A DNA stretch of 63,379 bases, the filler included, from Dimargaris cristalligena (lineage: Eukaryota): assembly GCA_003614675.1 (NCBI GenBank). It is 7 parts of 7 records of this genome, joined end to end, with 100 filler letters (N's around TTAATTAATTAA, not from the genome) between each part and the next. Parts side by side here need not be neighbours in the genome. Positions count along the whole stretch, not along the records: positions 54,427 to 63,379 come from ML003299.1; 6 more parts are not named here. The stretch is one strand, 5' to 3'. This document shows, one piece after another, positions 9,006-63,379 of the stretch. The notes beneath the pieces were generated by a model that was given only the letters and a program-made list of their open reading frames with translations, was not told the DNA's origin and made no database searches. Positions within the stretch are counted from its first letter, which is position 1. Each line of letters begins with the position of its first letter. Position numbers and translations under genes: made by a program.

Positions 9006-9105
9006 NNNNNNNNNNNNNNNNNNNNNNNNNNNNNNNNNNNNNNNNNNNNTTAATTAATTAANNNNNNNNNNNNNNNNNNNNNNNNNNNNNNNNNNNNNNN
9101 NNNNN
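9006..9105. other. Artificial contig linker
   Basis: 100-nt N run with central TTAATTAATTAA (stops in all six frames). Confidence 0.98.
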
Positions 9106-18079: not shown

Positions 18080-18179
18080 NNNNNNNNNNNNNNNNNNNNN
18101 NNNNNNNNNNNNNNNNNNNNNNNTTAATTAATTAANNNNNNNNNNNNNNNNNNNNNNNNNNNNNNNNNNNNNNNNNNNN
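18080..18179. other. Artificial contig linker
   Basis: N run with TTAATTAATTAA. Confidence 0.98.
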
Positions 18180-27150: not shown

Positions 27151-27250
27151 NNNNNNNNNNNNNNNNNNNNNNNNNNNNNNNNNNNNNNNNNNNNTTAATT
27201 AATTAANNNNNNNNNNNNNNNNNNNNNNNNNNNNNNNNNNNNNNNNNNNN
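27151..27250. other. Artificial contig linker
   Basis: N run with TTAATTAATTAA. Confidence 0.98.
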
Positions 27251-30181: not shown

Positions 30182-31528
30182 TTATAGATGAGAGCCATCA
30201 TACACTTCATTTAGACTGTCGGCGCGAGAGGCGGGCATTTTGCCTTGTTTTTTAGCGGACATGCCGCGGAGATCGGGTGAGTTAGTAATGGAATCCGATG
30301 AGGAGGTTTGGGAGCAGGAGGCGTAGTCAGGGGTAAGGTATGGGGGCAAGTGGGCGGGTGTAATGGCAGGGGCCATGAACGTGGATTTTTCAACCACAAT
30401 TTCGGGAACGCCCGAAGGGGGGCGGCTGGGGGACGATTTGGGGGGCTGGGGAATGGTAGGGGTATGGAGGTCCCGGGGGTGGTGAGTCAAGGGGACCGGA
30501 GGAGGTGAGCTAGCCGAGGCAGCAGTCCCAGGGCCGGCCGCAGCAGATAATGGGCGACCAATAAAAAGGGGAGAGGGTTGGCGGGAACGCGGGTCGGTCT
30601 TGGACTCCTCCTTGACCAGGTGTAGCTGGTGGGCATCCAGGAGATCGGTGTACATGCGTACGGCATCGGCCAGCTGACCCGTGCTGCTTACGATGCGGTC
30701 TATGAGGTCGGTATCACCCGGGGGGATATGCTGCAGCACGCTCAGCAGGGCCTGGTGAAGCTCCCGGCTCTTGGGGATAAACTCGCCAACCACAGGGTTA
30801 TCATTGATATCGTTGGTCTCCGGCGAGATGGTCATGAGCGCCTCGGTCAGCATCTGGGCATAATTTAGGGCGAGAGTGGCCAGGGTAGCGGGCTGCGGCG
30901 CAGTCGGGGATAGATGAAGGGCACCCGGCAGCTGGGGTTCGACGTATGCGCCAAGGGGGGCCAACATGGTGTAACCGAAAACACCGTAGTGCTCAGACAC
31001 GCCAGACACTAGAGGGCGGGGCACAAAGCGAATGCGGGGAGGGCCCCAGTAGCGTTGAGCCCCCAGGGCGGTATGCGCCAATGGGGTGGTTAACGCGGGG
31101 TCCGAAGTTTGGGCGGCCCAGTGTTCTAGGATGTTGATGAGCGCATCCCGGAGCACATGAATCGTGGTGGCGGAGTAGATGCGATTGGTTAGGTCATTGA
31201 GAAACGTGGGAGCGGCTATTGTCGGAAGTACGGTGGTCGGGGCCTCTTCAACGAGAGAATTGAGGACCATGAGAGAACCGATAGAGGCGGTGACTTTACG
31301 GGACCACAGCCGGCGACGGAGATTACCGGCGGTCTTTTTCCAGAATTTGTCACTAGCCTTAACCTCGGCGATGAGGTCAGGAAGCCCCTCGAGGGGGTGT
31401 TCAATGGCGCGGTCCACACTGACCTCTGGCTTGCCCTTGAGTAATCCCAGCACCAGGTTCCAGCGGGAACGTTTAGTGGAAAGGGTCCGGGGAGGGGGCT
31501 CGATGATAGTTTCGGACTGGGTAGCCAT
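30182..31528 (-). CDS. VHS + GAT domain endosomal adaptor (TOM1/Lsb5-like), intronless
   Basis: Helical VHS-like N-terminus (WNLVLGL...LRRRL...SLMVLNSLVE...FLNDL), GAT-like ALNYAQMLTEAL...NPVVGEF...DLIDRIV...LADAVRMY, Pro-rich tail; 448-aa ORF. Confidence 0.75.
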   Translation of the reverse strand: MATQSETIIEPPPRTLSTKRSRWNLVLGLLKGKPEVSVDRAIEHPLEGLPDLIAEVKASDKFWKKTAGNLRRRLWSRKVTASIGSLMVLNSLVEEAPTTVLPTIAAPTFLNDLTNRIYSATTIHVLRDALINILEHWAAQTSDPALTTPLAHTALGAQRYWGPPRIRFVPRPLVSGVSEHYGVFGYTMLAPLGAYVEPQLPGALHLSPTAPQPATLATLALNYAQMLTEALMTISPETNDINDNPVVGEFIPKSRELHQALLSVLQHIPPGDTDLIDRIVSSTGQLADAVRMYTDLLDAHQLHLVKEESKTDPRSRQPSPLFIGRPLSAAAGPGTAASASSPPPVPLTHHPRDLHTPTIPQPPKSSPSRPPSGVPEIVVEKSTFMAPAITPAHLPPYLTPDYASCSQTSSSDSITNSPDLRGMSAKKQGKMPASRADSLNEVYDGSHL

Positions 31529-33900
31529 GCCGGAGGGATTAGAGGATGGAGCGTGGTGCAGGGGCTGAACCAGGCGGCTGGGGGGATTTCCTTTCGGGGG
31601 AGACCAGGACTAAGAAAAACACAGAAGTAGTTGCGACGACGACGACGAAGGCGAGTCACTCTAACTCAAGGTCGATTCACGCAAAGCAAAACGGGGCGAG
31701 TATGAAAAAGATGACGGAGGAGGGTAATAAGGTGAGCAATGCGAGTAAGAGCTTCGTTGGGTATATAAAGGGAAGGGTAATCCAAAGACAAGTGCTAATA
31801 AGCTGTAGCCAGCTCCGACGGCGATTAGCGAAGGGAAAGGAAAACCAAAATTACGTGAGGCTAGCAACACAGGGTTACTAACTGGAAGGCAGTAGAGTGG
31901 CACCACCTCCGAGGGAACTCAAGGAAGGCACTCGGGCAAGCGAGGAAGGAAGGGCTGAGTAACGGGCTAAAACACAAAGCCAGCGGAACAAGAACAAAGA
32001 TGCGCACACGATTAAAAGAGAGTAGAGGGCGGCGGCAGGTATTTCTATATATATATAATTAAGGCTTTGGAAATGTGTATAGATTATATTTACAAAAATG
32101 GGATATACGAATATGTGTAATGGCAAATGCAAGGATGTGGACATGAGAATGAATTGCATGTTTAGTGAATGGGAAGTGGGATGGGGACAGCCATTGGGCA
32201 GACTCGAGAGTTGACAGGTCCAATAACACCGGAGCAACTACAGAGTGGCCAAGGAAGGCACTATATACATGAAAGTGGTGGTCAATACACTACGAATGTG
32301 CGAGTGTGTTGGTCAACGGAACGGATGAGCATGTCAAAAATATCCTTCCTTTTGCCCTGCCGAATGGGCTTCCGCGGCTGGTACATTTCACGGATCGGCC
32401 ACGGCCTTGCGGAAGGCGACGAATATACAGGGAAAGGGAGATTGTCCGTCACCCCTATGCATCGGGAAGATTGCTCCTCTATCACATTTAAGCGGATTTC
32501 CTAACCAAGTGGGGGGGGTGCTGCTTTTTAGTGTCTTAAGCCAAAATAGGTTTAAAGCCCCTGGCAGCTTTCAATGGGCTGTTGCTCGGTCATTATTGCG
32601 TTGGTACGACGGTTCGGGCTGTTATTAATAATCTCTCGCTTCCCGATGCTCTTACGGCCGAGGCCTAGCTCTCGGGTGGATAATATTACCTTGCTTGGCC
32701 TTGGCATTGTCAGATGCCCTGACCACGTGATGGATATAGGCGCCAAGAAACACCCGCCACCAAGCGTCGAGTTAAGGGCTCCCTACTATTTCTAGAGCCA
32801 AATCGCTTTGGGGGGCATCATATACAACAGGCCTGATCCACTGCATGGGATATCTGATGACCATGAAGACACTTCTCCAATGCGCACCCGACCTGCCCTC
32901 TCGTCACTAGGCTGAATGATGCCTCTGGGGTATCGATTGCCACACAGTTCAGTGGAATTGGGAACCATTTGGTTCTCCTTGTACACTAGCCTATTCACCA
33001 CTTGGGCGACGAAAAAATAAAAAGAGAAAATCCCCCGGTGTTGATGCACCCCATCACGGATAATACCACTCGAAAGGGCAGCATACCGCACAATGACAAT
33101 GATCTTATGTAGCCTTATTCTTATTGTTAGCCCTTTTAGTTTGGGAGGACACCCTCGTCATCAAGAAGAGGTTGTGTTCCTTTAAAAGAGCAGTACCAAC
33201 CACATATGTCACCCACCTCCCCCAGCATATGCGTGCTGCTTCTAAAGGCCAATTAGATTGTCCATCGTCATCATGACTGTAGTTTAGCTTCGGCTGACCT
33301 TATTTACGCTGGCTGCCCCCGCCCCCCCCCTCAGGAGACACCATAGAACTCCCCTAAATGATACCTAACAAGCAGGGTGCACTGCAGCTAAGTGGGCTGC
33401 ATCCTCGGTGGGCCACAAACCTTTCACCTAGGATATATACTGCTACTCCGGAACTAAGACAGTCTGATATTTCAATGACATACCCCAACCCAATTGGCCA
33501 ATGTTCGAATGACCCGATGGACTCTGGCCAAGGAATAAAATAGACGGAAGTATTCACCGTGGCACGGGTTGGCATCTTCGGGTCTTGGCTTTGTAACAAC
33601 CCGGGCCAAACAATACAGGTGATTCCAAGAAATACCGGACACAAGAATTGCTGCCAAGCGTAGACCACATTCACGTTTCTCGGATAAAATAATTTCTTAA
33701 TCATTGTGGCTAATTAGCGATCAACAGGTAACAAAGGTACGGTCCAAGGGATCCATTCATTTACGGACTTCATAAACAATAGAGTGGCGGGGCGTTAGGC
33801 CGATAGGGAACTAGGGGTAGGTTAGAGTAGTTATGTACTGGTGATGAAGCAGTCAATAAAATTCAGCAATTTTACCCTGTTGCATAGACCGAGCTTAATA

Positions 33901-36210: not shown

Positions 36211-36310
36211 NNNNNNNNNNNNNNNNNNNNNNNNNNNNNNNNNNNNNNNNNNNNTTAATTAATTAANNNNNNNNNNNNNNNNNNNNNNNNNNNNNNNNNN
36301 NNNNNNNNNN
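36211..36310. other. Artificial contig linker
   Basis: N run with TTAATTAATTAA. Confidence 0.98.
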
Positions 36311-41151: not shown

Positions 41152-41889
41152 CGTGAGTGAATGGGCACCGACACCCGGGCCGAATTCCGCTGCCATATAC
41201 CTCCACCGACCGCCATACGGGGATTGCAAGACCGAATCGAGCAATGGCCTGCATGCCTTGGCCCATGTGCACGCGTGGATGTTCAAGCGATTAACAGGAT
41301 GTCAACTTACCCGAGTGATTTGGTCAACATTTTGTACAGTAACTAAGGTCACCGATAATAAAGGAATGGGGTGAAGCTTAGATGGGGATATTTAGGAGGA
41401 AAGGAGGTGGTAATCTATACAGGTCCTTTGGCTGGAGGACCTAACCAGATTTCCCCAATGGCCTCGCTTATTGGGAGCAAGCCACGTCACGCTTTTTCCT
41501 AGGAGAATTTGGCTTGACTGCATCATCCCCGAACGCAGTGCCCCCCTTTTAACCGTGTTCATCAACTGTAAACTATTTGGCGTATTAAATTAATGATTTC
41601 ACCAACATTTATACTTTAGCTATCAATTCCAACGTCGTATTTCTCACTTTATAGTCAACGCAAAGTAGTTATAAATATATATATAGCATGCCTATTTAAT
41701 AACCCATACATAAGTATATAAGTAAGTGTGATGTTAGGTAGTCTTCCAATACTCCAACTTCGGAATAGATTTTCATATATATATCTCGATAAAAACCATG
41801 GACACCAGGCCCTAGTTTATTAAGTTTAAATTTTGGTTTTGGCATAAGCCCGTATTTTTGTTACCGAATGGGAGGACAACTCTCTAGTA

Positions 41890-44004: not shown

Positions 44005-44750
44005 CTAATTTTCAAAAATGACCTGGGCCACGACCCAGTCACCGTCATGCGATAAGGAGACGTGGCTATGTCCCGCTCCGTCACACTCCTGTGCCCGCTC
44101 GATTTTTAAGTAGGGTTTGGGTGAGCCTAGTCCAATGGTAGAGTTGTCAAATTGTGATATATACATAAATCGAAAGCCGCGCAACTTAGTCGTAGTTAGT
44201 ATTGCAGGTAATTTTCGACCCCCCTCAAAAAAAAACCCCCCGGACTATCCCGTCTCCAATATATTAATAGAAAACGCTCTCCAAAATGGACAAATACCCC
44301 TCCACCCCCCGCTCGGTATAATCTCGTCAGTGTGTCGGCATATTCAGTTAATAAGGTGAAAGAGTGGGGGAGGGGGGAGGTGCCCGCGTTATTACCTGTC
44401 GATTTCACAAGGGCCACTTCTTTCCAAGTGAGTTTACGTTGGGGATAGAGGGCCTTATACGCCGCTTCCTTGACCGCCCACCGAGAAGCCAAGAACCAGA
44501 CCATATCGTCAGGCACGGGGCGTTGGGACCGTATCACTCCGGCCGCAACCCCAACCCCAACCCCAACCCCAGCCCCTCTCTCCGACTCACCCGTCCCCGT
44601 TAAAGGTGCACCCCAGCGGCGTTGGTAGTCGGTCCACTCGGTGGGATGTAAAATGCGCCGGGCGAACCGGGTCGCATGACCAGGACCTTGTTCTACAATG
44701 CGCCGAATGCGGGAAATGCAACACAGATCAATGCCAATGCCCACAATCAT
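44005..44750 (-). CDS. PPT2: AcpS-type 4'-phosphopantetheinyl transferase (mitochondrial holo-ACP synthase-like); exons 44750-44396 and 44126-44005
   Basis: MIVGIGIDL, RFARRILHPTE, FLASRWAVKEAAYKAL; exon 2 GSPKP...HVSLSHDGDWVVAQVIFE. Confidence 0.9.
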
Positions 44751-45015
44751 GGTAACGTCCAGGTAAGACCAACTAGACAAAGTCGCTAAAATATATAGAA
44801 TATTAAGGGCCAAGGCGAAAACAAAATAAAAGGGAAATACAAGTAAGCCAAGCAACCTTCACCACCAAAGATATTAACCAGTCTATATAACCGAAGTACA
44901 GCGAAATTGCACTAAGAATACTATACATTCCCCCTTTCAGTTTATGGATAAAATATTGAATATTCCTCCCATGAATAGCAACTACCCCGCGAACGGGACG
45001 GAAAGAACAAAAAAG

Positions 45016-45273: not shown

Positions 45274-45373
45274 NNNNNNNNNNNNNNNNNNNNNNNNNNN
45301 NNNNNNNNNNNNNNNNNTTAATTAATTAANNNNNNNNNNNNNNNNNNNNNNNNNNNNNNNNNNNNNNNNNNNN
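45274..45373. other. Artificial contig linker
   Basis: N run with TTAATTAATTAA. Confidence 0.98.
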
Positions 45374-47189: not shown

Positions 47190-47422
47190 TATGTTTGGCA
47201 CAATACTTCATTCTTACCACTCCATTCCCTTGACGGTCATACTCATTCCCAATGACACCCCACTGACTCATTTTTATAGTTACTGCGGCCATTTGATATG
47301 AAATGGTCTATTGCTCATTTTTACAATAAACTCTTTTATTATAATTGTTACTGCCCCATCTCGCACCTAATCGTAAACCCAACCAGCCTTCTCCACCAGT
47401 TACTTGTAATTCAGACCTGCCC

Positions 47423-49726
47423 ATGGCCCGCTTTTCCATGACTTCCTCTAGTCCGCCATCACCGACCCCACCAAACGCCCCAGGGGCCCCTAGTCCCCAC
47501 TATTCTCAATGTTCTTGTCTCACCTGTCGCAAACGTAAAATTCGCTGCGACCGGCTACTACCCCGGTGCACCTCATGCCAGCAATGGGACTCGGAATGCC
47601 AATACGAACTTACCCCGGCTCGCCTCCGAAAAGCCCTGGCACGTGCGACAGCCAGCAAGGCATTGGCCCAGGATAAGCCCTCGATGGAAGCGCAGTCCCC
47701 GGCCAAAAAGACCACCAAGAGGAAAAAGAGGGTCAAGCCAGTCAAACCAGTCCCCCGAGTCCGCTTAGTACCCCTTGCACCGGCGACCAAACGGGCTATA
47801 CCCCCGAAAATCCCTCAGAATACTGTGACGAAGCCGGTCCTCACGGAACCAGAACCAAAACCAGAGCTCACGCCAACACCAACAGTAGCACCGGAGCTAC
47901 CAGACGTCGACGATTCTAATTTCCCATTTATTCTATCCCCGGTTATTCCCCGGACGCACTACATTCCCCCGAGGGATCAAAATGATGATTTTTCGACTTT
48001 ATCGAACTCCCCTATTCCAGCAAACTTAACCAGTATTTCTTCGCTCATCTTACCGCTATCGGTCTTTTACAGCGCTAAACGGCTTTGTTTGGCCAACTTG
48101 GTGGTGGATAATGTGAACCAGCGGACCGCTCGACTGCTATTCAAACTTCTTCGGGGCCGGCCGTCGTCGGCCAACGGTGTCCCATACCTCGATCAGATTT
48201 CGCATTTGGCGGAACAGGAAAGAACGAGCACTTCATCCAATGGCCTTGATATATCGAAGTGTAGCCCACCCAACTTCCGCTCCATGTTTGTATCCACCGA
48301 CTTAATCTATCATTCCGACGTGGTTCGCCATTCACTGGAGGATTTTTGCACCTTCATTTATAAAGGCCATAGTCCTTTGCAACGTCTCCGTGTGATGTAT
48401 CGATTGGAGAATCGACTTATCTCCGAACCCTTTCAACTGGCCACCATGATGGCCATGGCGCCCTTTTCCGATCATCCCGTTTTCGACCATATTCCACCAG
48501 ATACGGTTAATGTTCACTACCACTCTAAGCTGGTTTCTATGCTTCCGACCTGCTTAGCCGAATCCAGCCCCGACATGTTCGGGGTACTGGGGGTATTGGC
48601 CGAAACAACCTTAGGCCTGGGCCTATTTGACCTCCACCAGTCCCTAATTGCTGCGTCAACCCGCAAACAGCAGTCCGCGCGCATACACATTATTGACCAT
48701 CCCAATCCGCCCCCACAACCAGGCCACCTGATTTCGGAGGCCGACTCATTAATAGACGCACCCACCATTCGTGACGAATTTCTGCGTGACCATTATCGGA
48801 CGGTGTGGTGGACAACTTTCAGTAAAGATGTGCTTAGTGCGCTGGTTTTTGGCTACGAACCATTGGTTGACTTCAACGATTGCTGTGTCAACCTACCTCG
48901 TGCTAACCAAGATGCCGAATGCCGACTAGATATGGAACTTGCGAATCCATTGTCGGATATCTTCACTAGTACCAGATACCCGACTATGCTCGTAAACTCG
49001 CGGATCAAAAACAGTATTACTACTGTCAAGGCTAAATTATCTATTCTAGGTAACCAAGTCGCCAAACTTCGAGCGCGCCAGGCAAGTGATCCTGAGTCCT
49101 GGCTCCGAGCTTTACCGCAACTTAACCAGGAGCTCGAACGATGGTACGACCTCTTTGCAGAAGTTGCCCAGGGGGATTATCGTCTATTTGAACTTACATC
49201 GGCACTACCTTCCCAAAGAGAAGCCGACGCATTATGTTTCCGGGTTCGTGTATTATGCTCGATGATGATAATTCACCTCAACCACTTCGATGGCTATTCG
49301 CCGGATAGTATGGAACCTTTCCCCGGCTCGGCCTTGTGCAATGCTCTCCAAGCCGCCGGGAAGTCAGTGGATTGTACCTTGACTGAATGCCACGAGCGAT
49401 GCTGGTCAGCTGTCTTACGCCTCCGCGAATTTACTATCGACTCGTCCACCCCGCCTGGGTTCATCAACAACACGATGTTTATTTCAGCGCTGTACCCGGC
49501 TGCCATACTATGTAACGAACGGTTCCATGGTATGGGTTCCGTAGATCCTTTTCCAGTTAAACGTGCCGATCGAGAACTTGCCTCCGACTTCATTAACAAA
49601 ATTATTCAGATACTGGATAGTTTTGGGCAACTTTGGAAAGCCAACTTGAAGCTTGTCGAGGACATCCGCGTCATGCGCAACTCCCCTTTCTCGCGACGTA
49701 GTCTAACTATTAAACATATCGTATAA
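47423..49726 (+). CDS. Zn(II)2Cys6 fungal transcription factor, intronless
   Basis: CLTCRKRKIRCDRLLPRCTSCQQWDSECQY. Middle-homology-like region RDHYRTVWWTTFSKD...DFNDCCVNLP. First in-frame ATG at 47423. Confidence 0.92.
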   Translation: MARFSMTSSSPPSPTPPNAPGAPSPHYSQCSCLTCRKRKIRCDRLLPRCTSCQQWDSECQYELTPARLRKALARATASKALAQDKPSMEAQSPAKKTTKRKKRVKPVKPVPRVRLVPLAPATKRAIPPKIPQNTVTKPVLTEPEPKPELTPTPTVAPELPDVDDSNFPFILSPVIPRTHYIPPRDQNDDFSTLSNSPIPANLTSISSLILPLSVFYSAKRLCLANLVVDNVNQRTARLLFKLLRGRPSSANGVPYLDQISHLAEQERTSTSSNGLDISKCSPPNFRSMFVSTDLIYHSDVVRHSLEDFCTFIYKGHSPLQRLRVMYRLENRLISEPFQLATMMAMAPFSDHPVFDHIPPDTVNVHYHSKLVSMLPTCLAESSPDMFGVLGVLAETTLGLGLFDLHQSLIAASTRKQQSARIHIIDHPNPPPQPGHLISEADSLIDAPTIRDEFLRDHYRTVWWTTFSKDVLSALVFGYEPLVDFNDCCVNLPRANQDAECRLDMELANPLSDIFTSTRYPTMLVNSRIKNSITTVKAKLSILGNQVAKLRARQASDPESWLRALPQLNQELERWYDLFAEVAQGDYRLFELTSALPSQREADALCFRVRVLCSMMIIHLNHFDGYSPDSMEPFPGSALCNALQAAGKSVDCTLTECHERCWSAVLRLREFTIDSSTPPGFINNTMFISALYPAAILCNERFHGMGSVDPFPVKRADRELASDFINKIIQILDSFGQLWKANLKLVEDIRVMRNSPFSRRSLTIKHIV

Positions 49727-50223
49727 TTGGGACCATGCTATGCTAACGCGCTTTTACCTTTGAATAGTATTAAATCGAACAGGACACATGCTATTTCCCT
49801 TAATATTGTGAATCACACCGACCTATTTGCATATTGGGAGATATTGAGGCCAGGGTGTTTTTCTCACTTTATCCTGGCCGCCAGAACTGCCACAACAATG
49901 AATTTTCACTATAATAAAAATATTGCAAAGTTAATAGCCATAATTAATTAACCATTCGTGGTAGACACGTCCTTTTAGCCAAATTGTTGTTGCAGGCATT
50001 TTGGAAATCAGAAATGTTCAGCCAGCAGATGTTATTGACGCGTACAACACAATTCTGGTAAAGTTCCCAAAATCGCAAATTTTATCAAAACCCATTTGTA
50101 TTCTTTCGCCCGATTCGGCAAATGCCTGAGTAAGTCATGTTAACCAAAGTTGGAAGCAACGGGATGGTCTATTTGGATAGAGATATTGTAGCAGTTATAA
50201 CTGCAGAGGGTTTGTTGGTCACT

Positions 50224-51823
50224 TTAGACTATCTGGCGCTTAGTTCGAGTTGAGCGACGAGGCCCTGTAGCCGATTTGAGACTGGTACCACTGCCCAATT
50301 TTCCGTTGGGTTTGCCGGTGGTCTGTAACTCATCCTTGGAAGACTTCGCTGGTGGATCGCTGGGGGATATTGCATTATCAGATTGCCTGCGCTTTTTTAG
50401 CGCCGCTGGACTACTATTTTGTTTTGTACCCAACCTCATCGAAATACGTTTGGCTCCAACCTCCTTGGCCCTTGATCCTTTGGTAGCGATAGTCTCTGTA
50501 TTGGCCGGGAGTTGTTTGGTTTTATCGGTATGATCACTCTGTGGAATGTCACCAGGCTTGGCCTTACTCTTGGAGCTTTTGCGACCCTTGGTCTGTGTGG
50601 TCTCTTCCGCGGCCGGCGGACGAACCACAGTGGGGTCCACGGGGTGCAGGCCGTATATTTCGTAGAGTTGGAAAACCGCCTGTTCTTTATCTTTGGCCTC
50701 GATCATAAGATCGACATCCGGTTCGCAGGGGGGTAAACTGACGACCCGGTCGGAATGGGCCCGGCGCTCCATCATGGTCACCGCCCCCCCGGCGTCCCTC
50801 TGAGTAATGTTGTTTGGGCCGAATACCCCGTCGCTCCCAAATGGCCCGAATAGCCGGTAGATAGCTCTCAGGGGGTTCCGGACTCGGGTTGATGTCGTCA
50901 TGATGCCAGTCCAGCACGAGCGGAATACTCAGTCGTTCACACAGGGGCATCAAGTCGGCGACCGAGTAACAAATCTCGTCATTCTCCAGTACCAAGCGGG
51001 CCTGGGCCGAAGGGCTCAGTCGCCGGAAATTGGCGGCAAACCGCTCCAGGGTGTCCGATTTGCTGCCGTACATGCCCCCCATGTGAATAATCATAACCGA
51101 GTCTGCGGGCATGTGCATGAAATCGAGGATTTGGGCGTGTTGATCGAGTTCCCAGAGGCTGTTGTCAATCACCTTGGCGCTGGGAGAGCCCAACTGGTTG
51201 AACTGGCCGGGGTGGAAAGTCAGTCGATGGCCTAACGTATTGGCTAGCTGACCAATACGCCGGAGTTCCGTCTCCGCGAAATCGATGGGGTAGCCGAGTT
51301 CGGCGTGGGACATGAACGGGAACATATCACTGGAGAGGCGAAGAAACCGAATGTGGTGGGTCTCGTTCCACCGGAGCATAGGCTCAATGTCGCGGACATT
51401 GGCCATGGCCAGGCCCTTGACGAAATTTAGCCCTTTGGTTTTTATGGTATCAAGGCGGCAGGTTCGGGAGGAGTAGATAGACGGCTTCTGCGCCCGTAGC
51501 ACAGTGTTAAGGCAGCTGGGTCATTCAATATCGCGTGAATGGGGGTGTTGGAGAAGGATATTGATATGTGGTGTTAGGAAATGTATGCTGGGATAAGATT
51601 GAAGAATATATATATACCACTGTCTAGTGGCCCTGATTCGAGTGACCGGGAAACCTGGTGGGCCTTCAACCAGGACCTAGCCTCATACGGCAGTGGTTTG
51701 CTTAGACGCGGATGCCGATGTATCAAGTTTGCGGCTACGCCTGACTTACGAAGGGTTCAATTAGTAAACGACTTACGCGTAGCCGAGCCGCCCACGAAAG
51801 TCTGTGGATTTTGACGATGACAT
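50224..51823 (-). CDS. UVE1: UV-damage endonuclease (UvdE family); exons 51823-51777 and 51515-50224, with an apparent +1 G frameshift at 50784-50790
   Basis: GRLGYAC-LNTVLR, SSRTCR, FLRLSSDMFPF, RLTFHPGQF, LVLENDE, LVLDWHH, KQHYSE; continuing in another frame GAVTMMERRAHSD and DLMIEAKDKEQAV. Confidence 0.9.
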
Positions 51824-54326: not shown

Positions 54327-54426
54327 NNNNNNNNNNNNNNNNNNNNNNNNNNNNNNNNNNNNNNNNNNNNTTAATTAATTAANNNNNNNNNNNNNNNNNN
54401 NNNNNNNNNNNNNNNNNNNNNNNNNN
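54327..54426. other. Artificial contig linker
   Basis: N run with TTAATTAATTAA. Confidence 0.98.
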
Positions 54427-54680
54427 TGAAAATGGAGGTAAAATAACCATACTCATCAGGGGCAGGGGCTCATTCACTCATCAGGGGCGTACTTCCGATA
54501 AGTGCAAAAAATAGATAGAAATTAAAAGTAGGTAAAAAATGTGGTAAGTTTACCACATATGACATAGGATAATCCCATAGTTTCAGGTGTGACTATGGGA
54601 AGGTTAATATGGTACTATAAGGCCTAATAGGGATGGATACTAAAGTGCCTGGATTAAGAAGGATTAGATGGTCCAATATG
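54427..54680 (+). repeat. Repeat family D end (to 54557) followed by family C 3' end
   Basis: Matches 45374-45481, then 17175-17292. Confidence 0.85.
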
Positions 54681-55326
54681 GCTGTTATTTAGATTATTAT
54701 TGTGAGAGATAGGCACCCCTTAGAATTAACTATATGTACAGGATAATAGTTCATTGTATGAGGGAATACTAATTGCCAGGAATCGGACTACTACTGTAAA
54801 CATAGGTGTTTATTAATATTTGTGAATAGTAAAACTAAATATGTACTGTTATATGTATGCCACCTTAAGCATTGTATATTCCTACTAAGTTGAAACAAAG
54901 TACTAGTTAAACCCACTTAACACTGCCATAATCTGCAATAATAATGCAAGTGTTTATATATGGGGTTGTAGTTTGGCAACATCTGGACACTGCCATCCCT
55001 TTAGTTTATGCCATATAAACGTGGCTCCTGTGCTGTGAACAGCCAATATTGGTGGCCTGATTCCTAGCCTGTTCCACAACAAGCTGTGATAAAAAAGATG
55101 GTCTAATGATTTATTATAAAATGTTAAAGATTTGAGTATATAAAGAGAAGAGAAAGGTAAGGAAACTAAAGTAAGTCAACCCATTTCTAGATACAAAAAA
55201 ACACTATATATAAGGCTTTAAGGAAACCGCATTAATATAATACTAATCATTCAAAAAATATAAACCTAGTGTAATCTACGGGTCTTTGAGAGGTCTAAGT
55301 CCCTCCAAGCTAGCTAAACAATATTC

Positions 55327-56912
55327 TTAAACGGAATATTGGGGTAGGATGTTACTTTTCTCCCACTCAGTCGCTATGATCACTGACTGGTCCAGATCCG
55401 AGGACTGGTCCTCATTGGATTGGTGGTGATGGTACACCCGCGGGGCCATGATAGGAGTTTCGAATGTACTGGGTGAAACATACAAGAAGTGAGGGTCGTG
55501 GAACAGTTTAGTACAGGCCACGGTGGGGTCAACTAGTAGAGTGGACGGTTGCTGGGGATTGGGAGTAGTAGGTGCGACGGTGCTGCTCACTATTGGGGCA
55601 GTGGCCCCGGCGGCATCATGATCACCACCCCTAGCAGTCTGCTCGGCGGCCTGGCTAAAACCAAAAGCCAGTGCACAATGGTGAACCCGGTCAGTGGCCA
55701 GAAGGCTATAGGCCGCTTTAATTTTCCCCACCAACTCGGGCAGATTATACTCCAAAGCCAGGAGGTGGGCAAAATTGGAGACATGTTGATAATTGCCTAG
55801 GCTGTGGCTGGTTTGGGCCCTTTCTAGGACATCGAGGACCCCCTCGCCGGCGTGATTCAGGATCAAAATGGTGACCAGTTCCAAGGCCACTAGGGGAGAT
55901 AAAAAGAAACGCAGGTTGGTATGGGATTTGGTAATCAACCCCTCCGGCAATTGTTGGGCGAGCTCGTAAAGGGGTTGGGCCACGCTTCGCTTAATTTCCG
56001 CCTGGGTAGTCGGGAATGACTCGGTTAGTTTCGTGAAAGCGGGTAGGGCTAAATCCACATGACGCCCTGTGACCAGGGCCAAAAGGGGGAACCACCGCAT
56101 ACGCTGCCTGAAGGTTAATTGAGTATAGTTGACGTACCGCAAGTGGGACTCTGCCTGGGTTAGAGCGGCCTGGAATTGGGAATCTAAGGCTACAGAGCGG
56201 GAGGACCCAGTCATTGGTGGGAGGATAGAGCCGGGTATACTGGGAATGCCCGGGGTATGGCGGTCTTTCGAGCGAGTGTGTTGACGACGAGGGGCTCTCG
56301 AGCCGGTGGATTTAGTTTCAAGGTCGGATTGGATACATTTATGCAGGAGCTGAATGTAAGCATTTGTGGCTTCCGCGGGTATCAATTTAGCCAAGAACTG
56401 TGGAATCAGGACGCTGCCTTCGGGCTTTTCTATATAGAGTTGTGCATATTTTTGAAGCTAATAGCCATTGGTGATCAAAAAAAAATGAATAATAATAGTA
56501 GTAACAATATGGGCGGTTATAGAATATAGTTGGGGTGGATATATAAAAAAAAAAGATTGGCATCCGTGATACTATTGAGCGCCCCCGTTGATATTCCAGA
56601 CGAAAATGACAGGGTGACTACCACCATGCCATACCAAACAGTTTCATTCTAGTGACATGTTATGCGCAGACTTACCTGTATATACTTGATTTCTGAATTA
56701 TCCAGCAACGATTGGAAATTCCGTGAGACTCGTCGAAGCCGTTGGATATCATTTAGAGCGAGGGGCTCTATCATACTGGGCCATAGCTCTGTGGGTATGT
56801 CGAGGAGGGAGATGGAAGGATGGGCATGTGTTCCGGTTTTGGTGACTAGTGCAACGAAAACAAGGCCCGATAGCCCGACCCAAGCAGATGCGGTAGACGG
56901 TAGCAGGCGCAT
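55327..56912 (-). CDS. Putative secreted protein with N-terminal F-box (~455 aa); exons 56912-56676 and 56457-55327
   Basis: Signal-peptide-like MRLLPSTASAWVGLSGLVFVALVTKTGTHA|HP, then F-box-like LLDIPTELWPSMIEPLALNDIQRLRRVSRNFQSLLD. A phase-0 GTAAGT...TAG intron joins it in frame to the 355-aa ORF. Confidence 0.75.
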
Positions 56913-58305
56913 TGTGATGGATTGCAAGTAGATAAACAACTTCGGTTCAAGGCAAACGTGGATGGGTGGGTGGTGTATAAGAATGCAAGAAAAGGGCGAT
57001 ATAGAAAACTATCTATCGAGGCTAAATTAACTTTAATATAAATGGATATAATCCAGGGCAAAACGTGAATAGCCAGACTGGGAAAGATGTGAGTGGGCTT
57101 GGTGGATACAGTCACAATTAGGGCGGGCGCTCGCTGGCTATTTATCCTTGTCATTATTATTTTTTGATTCGTATTCCAGAGAGATATAGCAATTAAATCA
57201 CGCTAAGGCACGATTCCCTCGCTACGCTATTGTTTTGACCTTTTTTCACCTACACCAACTGCTTGATATGCCAAGACTACAACTAGCCATTGAAACGCTC
57301 GTGACACAGCCTACCGGAATACTTTAATTCTATAGGTTCTGCCTTTTTCTCGATGATTATTCATACTTTGGATTGGGAAGAGGCCAACCGGAACAATGTA
57401 CGCACCGGCCGAGATGAAGCGAAGCTTTAAATGGAAGGTCCTGATATCTCAAGCTAACTAGATGGCCCCATTGGTTAGATAACATATTCTGTACCACCCA
57501 TTCGGATAGGCATTTTACCAATCGGTGGAATGTTACGGTGGTTACGAAAAGGGGAAGGAAGGGGGAGGAGGAAGGGGATTTCACCATATCGACTTGCCGT
57601 TACCTAGTCGAGTGCCGTTTTATCGCCCTCCATGTCCACGAGGCCCGATGAGGCAAAACAGGGCCATCCATTGTACTTTAGCGTACGACCTCAAGCACCG
57701 GTATAATGGAGTAGCCGTAAGGGAGAAGGTCATAAGTACACCTAGCCCCTAGCACCACATTCGCCGGTTCGGGGTTTCTCGAAGGACGGGAGAAAGATCA
57801 CGGGGGCCGTGGGCCTAGTTTTTGGGTAGGACAAGGCATTAATTACGACCAATCAGTCTTAAACTTCGGGAGTATAAGGGTACTCATCCCCTTTGCCTAT
57901 TTCTTGTACTAAAAATACGACTACGGCAATTGAGATTAGCCAATTAATTTGGACTATAGGTTCCGGTGGTGGTAGTGGTGGTGAAAAACGTGGAAACGGG
58001 GGGGCCAATTGAGGACCGTCGACGACTCGCTAATGGGGTGGGGGAGTGTGCTCGAAACGACCGGGCTGCGGTGAAGGGTACGGATGTTGTTTAATGAAGG
58101 GCAAAACAGTAGGGACAAATCGGGGAGTCCAAGGCTTTCCATACCCCATCTCTAACTGGTGTTTCAAGTCATTGGGCCTCTATCTAAGCATCCTCTCCAC
58201 AGCATGTCGCGCAGCTAACTCCCTCTAAACCAAAATGCCGGCTTATATGGCTGCCACATCACATGGGCAGTCGGCCTACATCTACGTGAGTGCGGTAGAT
58301 TAATA

Positions 58306-58443
58306 TGGGTGAACTTCAACCCAACTGTATAAGATTTTACACAATATATGTATGGGAGAATATGTGGGAGAATAACTTTTGGCCAGTAATATTTACCTCG
58401 TCAAATGGATGTTTCGTTATACAGCCTGGATGAATTTCTGCCA
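58306..58443 (+). mobile_element. MITE family A, copy 6
   Basis: TA|TGGGTGAACTTCAACCCAACTGTATAA ... TTATACAGCCTGGATGAATTTCTGCCA|TA. Confidence 0.85.
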
Positions 58444-60978
58444 TATAGAAGCATGCGACCCTACTGATAGGAAATTGGGTTGGCTTTGGCTAATTCTTCG
58501 GGAGGCCGATAGGCTGGAGAAACCCTGCATGGTTAGATTAGCCTCGGCATCGGACTCTGCAAATAATGGCAAGGACGGCAGTGGTGTGTGGGCTGGAGGG
58601 GCACCAACGACCTGCGGGCTAGCTTTAAAATTGCGACTGAAGTGGGTGGTGCCATTTAGTGTAGAGCGCCCCTCCGCCCACTTACGCCGGTCGAGCGTCC
58701 TCTCTGTTTCTCTCTCTTTCTCCCTCTTTCTTGTGCTCTCTCCTGATCCGCTGGCTTTCATTAAGCAGGCTGGGCAGTAGCGTCCTTCCCCCTCGCTGGC
58801 CAAAAGAAAAAACAAGACGGACAGTTCAGGGGAGAATAGGGACACTAAACGGAGCAGGCAGGGGAGAGGAGAGAAGGAGAGGATGGAACCCAACCATTGA
58901 GTAGATCCTACTGTCTATTTGGGACTGATTTACCCAGAGAGTGAAACCAAGGGCTGAGGAGGCGGTAAGGGTTTGGGCAGGTAAGCCAGCATTACCTTGA
59001 CAGCGGGACAGCGGAGGGGCGCGACTTGAAGAAATAATTGCCCTCCCCCCTTAGCAATATATGGGGTGGTTATTGGTAAGCGGGCCATGTTGGGGTGGGC
59101 GAAAGAGATGGTAGGGGAGAAAGGGGCGTGATGCCACTTTAGCCTCTGGTTAAACGGCGAAGTGGGATGATAAAGACGGCCTGGCCTGATTGGATCGGGG
59201 GATGATCCGCTCTTTTGGTACTAAATAGGGAATCGGAGTATGGGCGGAGTTGCCCATAGGCTGGTATATATTTACATATATTAGTGTGCGACGTCAACGC
59301 CGGCCTTTGACGAGGCGGAGATTTCCGGTTCGACCTGACGGGGTGTAGGAACGGCATCGAACGTGGTATCCGTGCGGGAATGAAGGAGGAGGAGGGGATA
59401 TCGCATGCTCATTGCCCACCTTTCAGTCAGCCAGTCAGCCCACCCAGGATGCGAAGAGAAGGGAAGGGAAGGGGGGACAGGGTGCTGTGAGTGAAGGGGA
59501 TGCAGTGCTGAATGGCTTATAGCCCACGTCAACTCTGTACACTGTGGCCTGTGTTGGAGGGGACATGCTACCTAGCGGCGTGAGATGGCAATAGTAGAAT
59601 ACCCCGCTCGTTGACCACAGCCCCCCCGTTCGGTTCGTCGGGCGGGGAGGGTGGTGTTCGACCAGCGTCTCCGCAACGATCGGAAGTTATAGCGAAGGCA
59701 GTATGATTCCCAATTACCCATGGAAGCTTGACCTTATGAGTGGTGTATGGTGTAGTCTGCCAAATATAGCCATGGTCGTCGTCAAAGATACGGGAGCAGA
59801 GATTGCCGCTCTAAATGGAACGCAGTGGTGGGCGGGAGCGATAAATGGGTATCCATTTTGGCAAAGATCGTCACTCTCTAAGGCCCGCTCCAGTGTAGTT
59901 CCCATCTCCGCGGCCCATTCACTGTCCATCCCAATGGCTTTTATATTATATCATACAGGAAAATTCCCTCATCATCGTTCCATGACATTTGGCAGTATTA
60001 AAGCCGCCTTGTTTGCGCTGCAGCGGGTTTCTCCAATGAAGCTGCCTTTTGCGTCCGTACTTTTTATATAGATTTATATATATATATATATATCTCGATT
60101 TATTTGCATACTGGTCCAGCCGATACTTCGTCTGTCCTATACCCGTATTAACCAACTGCCTCGTTTGACGGCATTGTGTCCCGAGCTGTATTTCCTTATT
60201 GCTATTGCATCCTGTCACGTAAACCACCCGTTCCGCCGCCCCGTTCTACAGCTCGGCGGCTTCTGTCGCTGTACGGGTCTAGTCAAGTCGAGCGGCCAGC
60301 GCAAGCTATACATAATTGTATCTATCCAGCTTCCCCTGCTTCCAGCCTCCCCTGCCTTTTACCTCTGCCTTGTGTTGCACGCTCCCCTGTTCTCTCTTCC
60401 TTCTCTTTACTTTACTTTAGTTTCCTTTCCTATTATCTCGCTTTGCTAGACTCTTTTTTTCTTCTTGCCGACGGCTGCTGAGTACGCTTCGTTAGGCTTA
60501 GCGTACCCGCCCTTCCACCTTGCTCCACTGCCCTCCGGCGGTTTCGGTTGAGGTTTCGCCCGACTTAGTCCACTCGGCCCTTAAACCGCGGAACTTGAAA
60601 CGGCTCTTTCACCGTCGTTGCCAAGCCACAGCGGTGCTTGGCATTGCTCTATTTTGCCAGCCTTCCTGTGCCACCTCTTTTTCTAAGCCTATTCATTGCC
60701 TTTATATACATCTGGTACTACCCCCCTCTTTTTTCCTCTCACACACCTCCTATTTGGTACCTGGATTTGTGAATAGTACGGAGTTACCTCGCTCTTTTTC
60801 CCGTTCCTGATAGTCGCCCTCTCCCACACGTATTGGCCCATAGTAGTCCACGCCCATTCGCACGCTTGCGCTATTTTAAATATATACATATCACTATCAC
60901 TAGCTGATAACCCGCTGCCCTATCACGTCGTTTATTTATTAGGCACCCCCTCCTCTATACCCGCGGCCTGCCTCCACC

Positions 60979-62250
60979 ATGTCTCTCTTGGCCCCTCACC
61001 TCACCTGTCTCGCCCGACACCTAGAAAAGGCCCCCCGCCAGGTGAGCCGCGCGGAACTGTTCCGCCTGGGTGCCGCCGGCTTCTTCCTGTTTGCCGTGGC
61101 CTATTTCATGGTGTTTATGCAGATATTCTCCGACCGTCGCTGGCGTCGCGAGGCCCCCAAGCTGGAGGACCTGTCATTTGACTACTTTCCCCACTATCCC
61201 AATTTCCATATTGCCGACAATCTGGTGTTATCGTCGCTGCTGTTCGTCATCGTCGGCAATATGGTGCTTATCCAGCACTGGCGGGACCGGGTCATTTTCA
61301 TGCGCCGACTCATGTGGCTGTTGGGCATTCTTTACTTCTTCCGGGGCTTCACCCTCATCGTGACCACCGCCCCCAGCCCCCTGGAGTGTATTCCACCCAC
61401 CGCCCACTCCACCATGGAAATGCTCAAGCTGGGGCTGGAGCTGGTGGCCACCGTGTCGCGCACTTGCTCTGATAATATCTACTCGGGACACACCGTCATT
61501 TTGTCCAGCAGTTTCCTCATGTGGCGCATCCACTCCCGCCACACCGCTATTATCGTCTTTTCCGCCCTCCACACCACTTTGGGCATTCTCATGATTCTGC
61601 TCAGCCATCTTCACTACACCATTGATGTGCTGATTGCCATTTTCTTCACCTACGCCGTGTTCAGCCTCTATTTCTACGGTCTCGAGAGGGCCTCCCTATA
61701 CCACCACGGGCTATTGCCCTACAGCCACTCGTTCCCGGGCCGCCCCCGCTCGAGTGTATGGAAACGGTGCCCGGGCGATGACACCGACTCCCTGTCGTCT
61801 CCCACCTCTACCAGCACCACCGCAACTGCGAACGCCACCGTCACGGTAGTGACTTCCATGGCCACCCCTGCCGACACCCGACTTCCCGAACCTCTATCGG
61901 CCGTCATCGTGAGTGACAAGTACGAGGCCCCCCTGGGGGGAAGGGGCAGCAGTGGAGGGGGTCATCATCATCATCAGCAGCTACACGCCGTCCCCTCACC
62001 CCCCCTTACCGGTGACAGTGCCTCCAGCAACGGCGGGTTCGATGAGAAAATGGGCTACAGCTACTCCCCCGAACTCAGTGTTCACGAATGGCAGCGGGCC
62101 ATGTTTACTCCGCGGGTGCTTAATAACGGCATTCCCCGGCTAATTGGCTGGATGGACGGCCTGGACTTGCGGTTGCCCAACCACCGCTTGACCATGAGCG
62201 GGGACCGCCATTCGGTGGAATACTGTCCCCTCGCCCACTCTCCCATGTAA
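60979..62250 (+). CDS. Sphingomyelin-synthase-family (PAP2_C) ceramide phosphotransferase
   Basis: About 6 TM helices; motifs PKLEDLSFDYFP, RR...LYFFRGFTLIVTTAPSP, TCSDNIYSGHT and HLHYTIDVLIA correspond to SMS D1-D4, with catalytic His/His/Asp. Confidence 0.88.
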   Translation: MSLLAPHLTCLARHLEKAPRQVSRAELFRLGAAGFFLFAVAYFMVFMQIFSDRRWRREAPKLEDLSFDYFPHYPNFHIADNLVLSSLLFVIVGNMVLIQHWRDRVIFMRRLMWLLGILYFFRGFTLIVTTAPSPLECIPPTAHSTMEMLKLGLELVATVSRTCSDNIYSGHTVILSSSFLMWRIHSRHTAIIVFSALHTTLGILMILLSHLHYTIDVLIAIFFTYAVFSLYFYGLERASLYHHGLLPYSHSFPGRPRSSVWKRCPGDDTDSLSSPTSTSTTATANATVTVVTSMATPADTRLPEPLSAVIVSDKYEAPLGGRGSSGGGHHHHQQLHAVPSPPLTGDSASSNGGFDEKMGYSYSPELSVHEWQRAMFTPRVLNNGIPRLIGWMDGLDLRLPNHRLTMSGDRHSVEYCPLAHSPM

Positions 62251-63162
62251 ATTATACTCATTAACTCACACCCACCCACAAGCACACCTCTCGTTCGTTC
62301 CTCCCTCCTTTACTTCCATCCGTTGTCCGCTTCGTTCATTTTATTTTGGATCGACTCTAATTTTCTTCGAATCCACCCCCCAACCTGCCATATTCATTTT
62401 ATATTATTATTATTATTATTATTATAATATTACATCTATTTCTCTACTGGCTTCTCCGCCCCCCCCCACCTCGGGTATTTCCAGTGGCTTTACATTTCTC
62501 GAAACCCTGTAATTGATGATTCTCTTTAGCTCCGTCACCATCCTGATCCTTAAGTAGATTCCGATGATGATTGTTACAAATTATTAGTAGCTGTAGTACT
62601 TCCGTTTAAGTGCCTTGTGACGCAGAATTGGTTGTTCAATGCTCTCTCGTCTTGGGGATGTTTAAATATTAAATAGCCCGTTTTACATTATATATATCCC
62701 CTTTAAGCAATAACCCTTTGAGATGTGCCTCAATTGTCCGTAAGGAATTAAATGAGGGAAAGTGGACTCTCCTTGGCCTCGGTAACATGTGTAGCCCTTC
62801 CGAAGTCCCTGTCCTTCTCATTTTGACTAATATATCCCCCTGGTTTGTGGGTGCGGCAGCTAATGCTGATTTGGTCCCTTTTGTTTAAAGTCATAATTAT
62901 GAATACGCCTCCTTTAGTGACCACTACTCCCTACTTTTGTGACTCACGGGTACACATCCCCAAGTGTTGGATTAAAATGAAGTTCATTTCCACTTCACGG
63001 AGTTTACACCGACGCACACATGTGTGTGGGTGTGTGAATATACCTGCTTTTTGAGCATCCTCCCCCCATATTGCTGGCCAGAATCCATTGCACAGGTGAC
63101 TACGGCTTTATCCCAAGGATTACCCCGCGATTATGAGTGAGGTAATGCTGATCAATCTCGGC

Positions 63163-63184
63163 TGAGAGAGAGAGAGAGAGAGAG
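63163..63184. repeat. (GA)n microsatellite
   Basis: Uninterrupted GA dinucleotide run. Confidence 0.9.
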
Positions 63185-63379
63185 TGGATTTATGTCAATT
63201 GATGAAGTCGCCACACTCTGCTGGTTGGGATGGTCAGACACAAAATAATCGTTCCTGTTTTGCACTGAGGGAAATCCCACTTGCACTTGTGTACTGCTGC
63301 ATAGTGCAGGATTAAGGGAAGCTTATTTTTATCAATTTCTTTATCGGTTTTATCAAGACCGGATCATTACTATATATAT

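Follow-up and report, generated by a model that had tools for sequence, protein, structure and literature searches.

The gene described here lies on the minus strand of a 63,379-nucleotide stretch of Dimargaris cristalligena DNA (the window); it is real, and its product joins a signal-peptide-like leader to an F-box-like motif. The original prediction took this pairing for an effector that is delivered into a host cell and captures the host's SCF ubiquitin ligase. The evidence is best read, with about an even chance in our estimate, as pointing to an ordinary SCF adaptor that is specific to its lineage and has a hydrophobic N-terminus. Its F-box (residues 36-76) would dock on the fungus's own Skp1, and its fast-evolving, probably helical C-terminal region would pick the substrate for the SCF ubiquitin ligase. 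A basic cluster may carry the protein to the nucleus. The N-terminal 30 residues would then not be an export signal; they would resemble a signal peptide by chance, tether the protein to a membrane or stem from an error in the 5' gene model.

Several observations count for an ordinary adaptor: the full-length F-box profile match, its usual N-terminal position, the UniRef name, the lack of any other domain, of a homologue and of a paralogue in the window, the high secretome base rate of the species, the start at Met47 in a second annotation, the few cysteines and sequons, the commonness of orphan F-box families in zygomycetes and the fast evolution of F-box genes in another mycoparasite. Against it count a leader with every textbook feature of a signal peptide, including a proline at +2, the start context of Met1, a charge balance that would place the F-box in the lumen, and an F-box match under the Pfam cut-off. 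The life style of the fungus counts against it as well, given that host-delivered proteins are expected in a mycoparasite that lives biotrophically and has a predicted secretome of unusual size.

Gene structure and competing models

Both open reading frames on which the prediction was built are present on the minus strand, at 56649..57008 (which contains the Met codon at 56912) and at 55327..56457, and they splice through a phase-0 GT..AG intron into one frame of 455 amino acids with a single terminal stop. The predicted length of about 455 residues is thus what the spliced frame gives, but it is not fixed, as the deposited models differ. The elements of the gene and of its alternative models are as follows.

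56676..56912, minus strand: exon 1, 79 codons, with its ATG at 56912-56910, encoding the hydrophobic leader and the F-box
56458..56675, minus strand: intron 1, 218 nt, GTAAGT...TAG, phase 0, with a junction common to both deposited models
55327..56457, minus strand: exon 2 as a single open frame, 376 codons and a TAA stop at 55329-55327, encoding the orphan, probably helical C-terminal region
56108..56137, minus strand: in-frame stretch of 30 nt, GTACGT...CAG, spliced out as an intron in both deposited models
54933..55355, minus strand: alternative 3' intron, 423 nt, of the deposited 444-residue model
54907..54932, minus strand: alternative last exon, 8 codons and a stop, of the deposited 444-residue model; the contig ends about 480 nt away
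57035..57040, minus strand: TATA-like hexamer, at -128 relative to the ATG (pattern match only)

The first deposited model (P0004, RKP34227.1) is a D. cristalligena protein of 444 residues that matches the window letter for letter, has the same N-terminus as the translation of exon 1, and is named "F-box domain-containing protein" in UniRef. In the JGI set DimcrSC1 the protein has the number 31441. The second (P0003) comes from the annotation of another D. cristalligena assembly and is a 390-residue partial model that starts at Met47 and has no leader. The junction between exons 1 and 2 is identical in the two, and apart from the differences between the models the second record is nearly identical at the locus, with one substitution. 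The only N-x-S/T sequon of the protein lies within the 30-nt stretch that both models remove.

An in-frame stop closes the frame off at 57008; Met1 is the first ATG to follow it, and has an A at -3. No upstream ATG occurs in the 241 nt 5' of it, and the 100 nt immediately preceding it hold no ATG and only two AG dinucleotides. By context (first ATG, A at -3, TATA-like element at -128), Met1 looks like the true start.

The window consists of seven contigs joined by artificial N44-TTAATTAATTAA-N44 linkers, one of which bounds the contig of the gene (54427..63379, 8953 bases), so that the DNA to its left belongs to a different contig. The 8953 bases agree with the recorded length of the contig that carries P0004.

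54327..54426, no strand: artificial linker, N44, TTAATTAATTAA, N44

Supplement 3 of PMC9391592 lists the source as a single-cell assembly of RSA 468. The gene had been placed next to repeat-rich DNA, a description that does not hold, as Tandem Repeats Finder lists 15 rows, of 15-32 bases each, in its contig.

Relatives and copy number

An exhaustive phmmer search of the 444-residue protein against 1,835,955,588 representatives gave a single match at E <= 0.001, which is the species' own cluster. The same cluster was the only one of 7663 candidates to reach E <= 0.001 in the homologue search, and the only one of 34 in a search with residues 1-80. In the window, tblastn found no paralogue, although paralogues alike in the short F-box alone would escape these homology searches; weak tblastn matches at 41239-41304 and 49718-49783 were considered as further F-boxes and rejected, as they lie in unrelated frames. 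Since neither a homologue outside the species nor a paralogue was found, the gene appears to be a singleton rather than a member of an expanded effector family, and phmmer of the 444-residue protein found no sequence relation to known effector families. To judge from these searches, the protein is a species-restricted orphan of D. cristalligena. Contamination of the contig by DNA of the host (Mucorales) was set aside, since the searched libraries contained no mucoralean homologue.

The N-terminal leader

The N-terminus had been described as resembling a signal peptide, and the n-h-c layout is indeed present by a rule-of-thumb test, as distinct from a trained predictor.

56823..56912, minus strand: signal-peptide-like leader, residues 1-30, with R2 in the n-region, an apolar run at residues 8-23 and a c-region ending in T-H-A (heuristics only)

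R2 is followed by an uncharged run of apolar or small residues at positions 8-23 and then by K25. Sites compatible with the -3/-1 rule occur after residues 24, 26, 28, 30 and 35, and H-P follows the one after residue 30; the proposed cleavage between THA and HP is therefore a compatible site, but it falls after residue 30 and not after residue 31. The 19-residue Kyte-Doolittle mean reaches its maximum in the leader, 1.63, at residues 6-24. The apolar core is short (14-16 residues) and, when values of a residue scale are simply summed, not favourable as a membrane span, which weakens the idea of a membrane tether. If the segment entered the ER, the balance of charges (R2 plus the amino terminus on one side, K25, D38 and E42 on the other) would, under the positive-inside rule, place the F-box on the lumenal side. 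A mitochondrial presequence was set aside, given the single basic residue before K25. The whole protein has only 3 Cys and one sequon, and by eye no K/HDEL-type motif is present at the C-terminus of either model.

The F-box-like motif

The F-box-like motif noted behind the leader is recovered by profile search as a sub-threshold match to Pfam PF00646 at residues 36-76.

56685..56807, minus strand: F-box-like motif, residues 36-76, with sub-threshold matches to PF00646 and PF12937

PF00646 reaches 19.9 bits on exon 1 alone, where the match spans profile positions 1-41 of 43 (E 6.8e-4), and 16.3 bits on the whole protein (E 0.0092), both under the family cut-off of 20.5 bits; PF12937 matches exon 1 at the same place with 14.9 bits (E 0.023; cut-off 24.3). 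The conserved hydrophobic and Pro/Glu positions of residues 36-76 agree with what we take to be the F-box consensus. Among PDB sequences, phmmer found 0 matches to exon 1 at E <= 10. The AlphaFold2 (AF2) single-sequence model of residues 31-79 (pLDDT 74.7) has two helical turns and one long helix, not the three short helices of an F-box; Foldseek of this model against the PDB returned 0 rows, and no Z above 3.5 was reached when VIA-align compared it with 48,161 chains, 3.5 being the top value. The Atlas feature neighbours include F-box clusters, at scores of 0.80-0.82 that give a lead only. No Skp1 gene was seen within the window.

The C-terminal region

The C-terminus had been called unrecognisable and probably helical. 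It is indeed without a match to any Pfam family, and its helical character is suggested by low-confidence models: the AF2 model of the 444-residue protein has a pLDDT of 37.4 and the Atlas model a pLDDT of 0.43. The structures nearest to the Atlas model are TPR-like, with TM scores of 0.32-0.39 that lie under the bar. A Pfam search of the whole protein found no LRR or ankyrin domain, and no domain besides the F-box. Two local features stand out.

56260..56298, minus strand: basic cluster, residues 133-145, with 5 Arg and 1 Lys (pattern match only)
55858..55914, minus strand: internal hydrophobic helix, residues 261-279, with a Kyte-Doolittle mean of 2.12, the highest of any 19-residue segment of the protein

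The basic cluster is a possible nuclear localisation signal. Residues 261-279 carry a Glu in the middle, a Pro and an Arg, and give +2.65 when values of a residue scale are simply summed; they are likelier to form a buried helix than a membrane span.

Discussion

How the leader is to be read depends on how often such leaders are predicted in this fungus. D. cristalligena is a biotrophic mycoparasite according to PMC6784888, in line with the original prediction, and supplement 4 of PMC9391592 (Chang et al. 2022) gives it a predicted secretome of 815 out of 7456 gene models (10.9%), against 5.2% and 6.9% predicted secreted in two neighbouring Kickxellomycotina rows of PMC9391592, one of them labelled Coemansia spiralis. 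With 10.9% of gene models predicted to be secreted, a pairing of leader and F-box is expected by chance. Such pairings are also seen elsewhere: supplement 8 of PMC9391592 lists two F-box-like (PF12937) orthogroups as predicted-secretome indicators for Mortierellomycotina, in the same list as the plainly intracellular RhoGAP, Hsp70, AAA and Sir2 families. Given that PMC9391592 codes the Mortierellomycotina as saprotrophs, the pairing of a leader with an F-box arises in silico without parasitism. Like the Dimargaris protein, these orthogroups have an F-box-like domain; they pass a secretome prediction pipeline, belong to saprotrophs and show no homology to the Dimargaris protein by phmmer. The pairing in the Dimargaris protein may thus have come about through chance.

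Orphan F-box proteins are likewise no rarity in this part of the fungal tree. PMC5238444 reports an orphan F-box family of 31 members in Choanephora and describes such families as commonplace in zygomycetes, and a preprint on another mycoparasite (bioRxiv 10.1101/2025.11.25.690603) describes fast-evolving F-box genes without calling them secreted. Ordinary fungal F-box proteins resemble the Dimargaris protein in having an N-terminal F-box and a variable C-terminal domain, whereas a signal-peptide-like leader has not been described for them. One isoform of human FBXW7 spans the membrane. In our literature search for membrane-spanning F-box proteins, only the yeast proteins Mdm30 and Mfb1 were found, which are associated with an organelle, the mitochondria (PMC13328587).

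The reading put forward originally is doubtful in our view, and is the strongest of the alternatives. Here the mature protein (from about residue 31) would be secreted at the haustorium and taken up by the host hypha, where its F-box would bind host Skp1 and its C-terminal domain would mark a host protein for degradation. The order of the parts would suit this, in that the leader runs directly into the F-box, as in the N-terminal F-box layout of SSGP-71 of the Hessian fly; orphan status and the lack of known domains are what one expects of effector genes, the basic cluster (residues 133-145) could serve to direct the protein to the host nucleus, and the fungus is a biotrophic mycoparasite whose predicted secretome exceeds those of the two Kickxellomycotina rows. 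However, the indirect evidence leans against it: the gene is a singleton without paralogues, whereas SSGP-71 and GALA are expanded families, the Met47 model of the second annotation has no leader, F-box-like groups also turn up in the predicted secretomes of saprotrophs, which are not parasites, and the base rate of 815/7456 is high. The F-box match is, moreover, sub-threshold. Skp1 is highly conserved among fungi, so that nothing in the sequence favours the host over the fungus itself.

Agrobacterium VirF is a bacterial F-box effector, and the precedents named in the original prediction were all bacterial. A eukaryotic precedent has to be added, as the SSGP-71 effector candidates of the Hessian fly (Mayetiola destructor) carry an F-box and LRRs and bind wheat Skp1-like proteins through the F-box (PMC7330099, PMC4617103). 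In the candidate vH6, removal of the F-box abolished the effect in Nicotiana (PMC7330099/PMC4617103), and the fly genome is described as rich in salivary-gland genes that encode signal peptides. SSGP-71 shares with the proposed effector a eukaryotic parasite as its source and a layout in which the F-box comes first and the domain that binds the target comes after it. In contrast, SSGP-71 is a very large, diversified LRR family directed at a plant, whereas the Dimargaris gene is a singleton with an unrecognised C-terminus, and the host would be a fungus. Among bacteria, the RipG/GALA proteins of Ralstonia show how a parasite-made F-box protein joins a host SCF ligase (RipG7, PMC4617103), and Legionella AnkB and LegU1 are further F-box effectors reported to do so. 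These bacterial proteins reach the host by injection through type III or type IV systems and do not use a signal peptide; LRR or ankyrin domains are part of them, and phmmer found no homology between them and the Dimargaris protein. An effector in Dimargaris, if real, would be a variant of a known strategy.

Among the titles and passages covered by a literature search, which is no proof of absence, there was no secreted fungal F-box effector, and a comparison among Ascomycota (PMC8146833) speaks of a "lack of supportive material" when it comes to F-box domains playing a part in eukaryotic pathogenicity. In the unlikely event that the D. cristalligena F-box protein does enter the SCF of its mucoralean host and deliver a host protein, which may be nuclear, to the proteasome, no F-box mimic effector would have been described before it in any fungus or in the parasitism of fungus on fungus, and its origin would be independent of those in bacteria, viruses and the Hessian fly. 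It would extend a strategy of bacteria and gall midges to fungus-fungus parasitism, and the C-terminal domain would offer a handle on the host target. To our knowledge, almost nothing is known of how haustorial mycoparasites among the early-diverging fungi handle their hosts.

A further reading, which we hold to be improbable, keeps the leader and gives up the F-box: the protein would be secreted, lumenal or a type II membrane protein, its F-box-like stretch would have arisen by chance or degenerated and would not come into contact with Skp1, and its role, in the ER or on the cell surface, would be unrelated. The signal-peptide features of the leader would suit such a protein, as would F-box scores (19.9 and 16.3 bits) that fall short of the 20.5-bit cut-off, the 0 PDB sequence matches to exon 1, and a model of residues 31-79 with one long helix, 0 Foldseek rows and VIA-align Z values of at most 3.5. 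Yet an E of 6.8e-4 over the full profile would be hard to reconcile with it, as would the match of a second F-box family at the same place, the hydrophobic and Pro/Glu positions that agree with the presumed consensus and, at lead level (0.80-0.82), the F-box clusters among the Atlas feature neighbours; single-sequence models, for their part, are weak evidence for a domain that normally folds on Skp1.

Least probable of all, and in our view a slim chance, is a wrong gene model or a non-functional locus (an unseen upstream exon, a downstream start or a young orphan ORF): three models disagree (455 residues, 444 in P0004, and the 390-residue partial P0003 from Met47), the 30-nt in-frame intron is implausibly short and yet removed in both deposited models, the contig is short (8953 bp) and from what PMC9391592 lists as a single-cell assembly of RSA 468, and there are no relatives to show conservation, but chance is unlikely to leave 376 codons open and in phase with a domain-bearing exon, the locus differs by only one substitution in the second D. 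cristalligena record, and the 100 nt before Met1 have no ATG and only two AG dinucleotides.

If the leader of what we favour as an ordinary SCF adaptor proves to be a chance look-alike, the gene would serve as a useful warning. Because the predicted secretomes of these fungi hold many intracellular families, oddities that combine a leader with an intracellular domain would best be counted genome-wide before effectors are called.

Gene structure

Reading along the minus strand, the donor GTAAGT directly follows codon 79 of the first frame and a TAG acceptor immediately precedes the start of the second frame, which places intron 1 between the two. The features of the locus, including those of the deposited models, are as follows.

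Features of the F-box gene and of its deposited models
56649..57008, minus strand: stop-to-stop frame holding Met1 (ATG at 56912)
56675..56458, minus strand: intron 1 (218 nt, phase 0, GTAAGT donor, TAG acceptor)
55327..56457, minus strand: frame of 376 codons without a stop
56137..56108, minus strand: 30-nt in-frame stretch (GTACGT...CAG), cut out as an intron by both deposited models
54932..54907: eight-codon last exon of RKP34227.1, following an extra 3' intron of 423 nt

Splicing gives a product of 455 residues whose only stop is the terminal one, and the original prediction was right to join the two open reading frames. The same intron 1 is used by both protein models deposited for Dimargaris cristalligena, KAJ1989132.1 (390 aa, "partial") and RKP34227.1 (444 aa, "F-box domain-containing protein" in UniRef), the latter mapping letter for letter onto window segment 54427..63379 (8953 bases). 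The anticipated length of about 455 residues holds for the open-frame splice but depends on the model, the predicted protein being 444-455 residues long, its tail and an internal decapeptide uncertain. The 30-nt stretch is very short for an intron in a fungus; either it is an annotation artefact common to both models, or very short introns occur in this species. KAJ1989132.1 has Met47, midway through the F-box, as its first residue and is without the leader (residues 1-30).

The upstream sequence favours a 5' end at Met1. The Met1 frame is closed a little upstream, at 57008, no ATG occurs in the 241 nt preceding 56912, the Met1 ATG has an A at -3 and a TATA-like hexamer at -128, and the last 100 nt before it hold only two AG dinucleotides, leaving little space for an in-frame upstream exon.

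F-box match and leader

Residues 36-76 are very probably a true F-box. When exon 1 was scanned alone against Pfam, these residues matched PF00646 (E 6.8e-4, 19.9 bits, profile positions 1-41 of 43) and PF12937 (E 0.023), and their Pro-x-Glu start and hydrophobic spacing fit the F-box consensus. A whole-protein scan lowers PF00646 to 16.3 bits (E 0.0092); in both scans the F-box-like motif originally noticed is matched close to, yet below, the curated cut-off of 20.5 bits. The AF2 model of residues 31-79 (pLDDT 74.7) forms a single long helix in place of the two found in an F-box; with it, Foldseek returned 0 rows and VIA-align found none of 48,161 chains above Z 3.5, and phmmer of exon 1 against PDB sequences gave 0 matches. 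Atlas feature neighbours from F-box families scored 0.80-0.82, which are lead-level scores only.

The signal-like layout ascribed to the N-terminus is present by rule-of-thumb checks. Arg at position 2 is the sole charge before Lys25, residues 8-23 form an apolar or small run, and the -3/-1 rule is satisfied at several sites; the cleavage site first suggested lies after residue 30, with His-Pro next. The top 19-residue Kyte-Doolittle mean of the leader (1.63) is borderline for a membrane span, and its membrane-insertion sum is positive (+1.1 to +3.1 by window length). By such rules of thumb, the leader resembles the core of a signal peptide more closely than it does an anchor. Residues 261-279 are more hydrophobic (Kyte-Doolittle 2.12) and contain Glu, Pro and Arg; a buried helix is more likely there than a membrane span. 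Residues 133-145 hold a basic cluster that may serve as a nuclear signal. There are 3 Cys in the protein, its pI is about 7, and its single sequon falls inside the disputed 30-nt stretch.

C-terminal region and relatives

The C-terminus, described at the outset as unrecognisable and probably helical, indeed matched no Pfam family across exon 2, but its helicity is seen only in low-confidence, unusable whole-protein models (AF2 pLDDT 37.4; Atlas pLDDT 0.43). These are largely helical, and their nearest structures are TPR-like at TM 0.32-0.39, below any bar. Among 7663 candidates, exon 2 matched one cluster, whose two members are both from D. cristalligena; phmmer, run exhaustively over 1,835,955,588 representatives, gave the species' own cluster as the sole match at E <= 0.001, the N-terminal 80 residues (34 candidates) again found only that cluster, and tblastn of RKP34227.1 turned up no related gene in the window besides this one. 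From these lone matches the gene appears to be a species-restricted singleton, in searches that would miss paralogues sharing only the 40-residue F-box. Weak tblastn matches elsewhere in the window proved unrelated and were rejected as paralogues.

Competing explanations

There is roughly an even chance that the gene encodes an SCF adaptor of the ordinary, lineage-specific kind, with putative Skp1 binding, substrate recruitment and cellular location; its hydrophobic N-terminus would then be a signal-peptide look-alike, a membrane tether or an error of the gene model. Signal-peptide look-alikes occur in about 1 in 100 cytosolic proteins, as a rough figure. Dimargaritales form haustoria, and the prior that an individual F-box protein from a haustorium-forming parasite is truly secreted runs from well under 1 in 100 to about 1 in 100. 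Reasoning from these two rough rates, we place entry of the protein into the ER between improbable and evenly balanced, and take it to be rather doubtful.

If secretion and a real F-box were both true, hijacking of the host SCF, as the original prediction had it, would be the natural purpose. D. cristalligena is a biotrophic mycoparasite with a genome from single-cell genomics (PMC6784888, excerpt), and within Kickxellomycotina the mycoparasitic lineage is Dimargaritales (PMC9866270, excerpt). In bacteria, parasite F-box proteins that enter the host SCF ligase are established, RipG7 binding Arabidopsis SKP1-like proteins (PMC4617103, excerpt), and excerpted literature gives Legionella as a further case. 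A eukaryotic example is likewise established, the Hessian fly, whose SSGP-71 proteins combine LRRs with an F-box at the N-terminus; in candidate vH6 this F-box binds Skp1-like proteins of wheat, and the effect in Nicotiana is lost when it is deleted (PMC7330099, PMC4617103, excerpts). The fly's genome is rich in signal-peptide-encoding salivary-gland genes (PMC7330099, excerpt). Given these precedents, the idea is a variant of a known strategy.

The titles and excerpts of the literature searched name no fungal secreted F-box effector, and one paper notes a "lack of supportive material" on F-boxes in the pathogenicity of eukaryotes (PMC8146833, excerpt). Other literature cautions against over-interpreting the pairing of leader and F-box. 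Among zygomycetes, F-box families of orphan type are frequent (PMC5238444, excerpt). The predicted secretome of D. cristalligena RSA 468 takes in 815 of 7456 gene models, 313 of them classed as "other" (PMC9391592 supplement 4, excerpt); the main text of that paper, as excerpted, contains neither "F-box" nor "Dimargaris". Indicators of the predicted secretome of saprotrophic Mortierellomycotina include an LRR orthogroup and two orthogroups with an F-box-like domain (PF12937), together with RhoGAP, Hsp70, AAA, Sir2 and poly(A)-polymerase families (PMC9391592 supplement 8). Many families in that list are surely intracellular, and the pairing of leader and F-box thus arises in silico in non-parasites. 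To our knowledge, whether those F-box-like orthogroups are truly secreted or a prediction artefact has apparently never been asked. The indirect evidence leans against a secreted effector that hijacks host SCF, which we consider unlikely, and which nevertheless offers a cheap, testable lead.

A secretory-pathway protein with a non-functional F-box-like stretch is a distinctly unlikely alternative. That the gene model is wrong, or the gene an orphan without function, is improbable.

Surroundings of the gene

The window contains 12 stretches of 44 N; these form pairs spaced roughly 9 kb from one another, with TTAATTAATTAA between the two members of a pair (9006-9105, 18080-18179, 27151-27250, 36211-36310, 45274-45373 and 54327-54426). 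It therefore consists of seven artificially linked contigs of about 9 kb, genes across a linker are not neighbours, and DNA left of 54427 does not adjoin the F-box gene in the genome. The repeat-rich DNA said to adjoin this gene was not borne out: Tandem Repeats Finder gave just 15 rows, of 15-32 bases each, on the 8953-base contig. The sole other recognisable gene there encodes a protein with PAP2_C, a domain of sphingomyelin-synthase-like lipid phosphotransferases, and with a long Ser/Thr/His-rich tail.

Other frames in the window
60943..62250, plus strand, same contig: PAP2_C protein (Pfam E 1e-12; single 435-codon open frame)
2448-4061, other contig: RING finger, open-frame match
5793-6737, other contig: FMN-dependent dehydrogenase, open-frame match
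30185-31609, other contig: VHS, open-frame match under the cut-off
44199-44858, other contig: phosphopantetheinyl transferase, open-frame match
47345-49723, other contig: Zn2Cys6 transcription factor, open-frame match
50690-51520, other contig: UvdE UV-endonuclease, open-frame match

On another contig, a 982-codon plus-strand open frame (13200-16148), which has no Pfam match at E <= 0.001, sits where the window is richest in GC (0.61 at 14001-16000).
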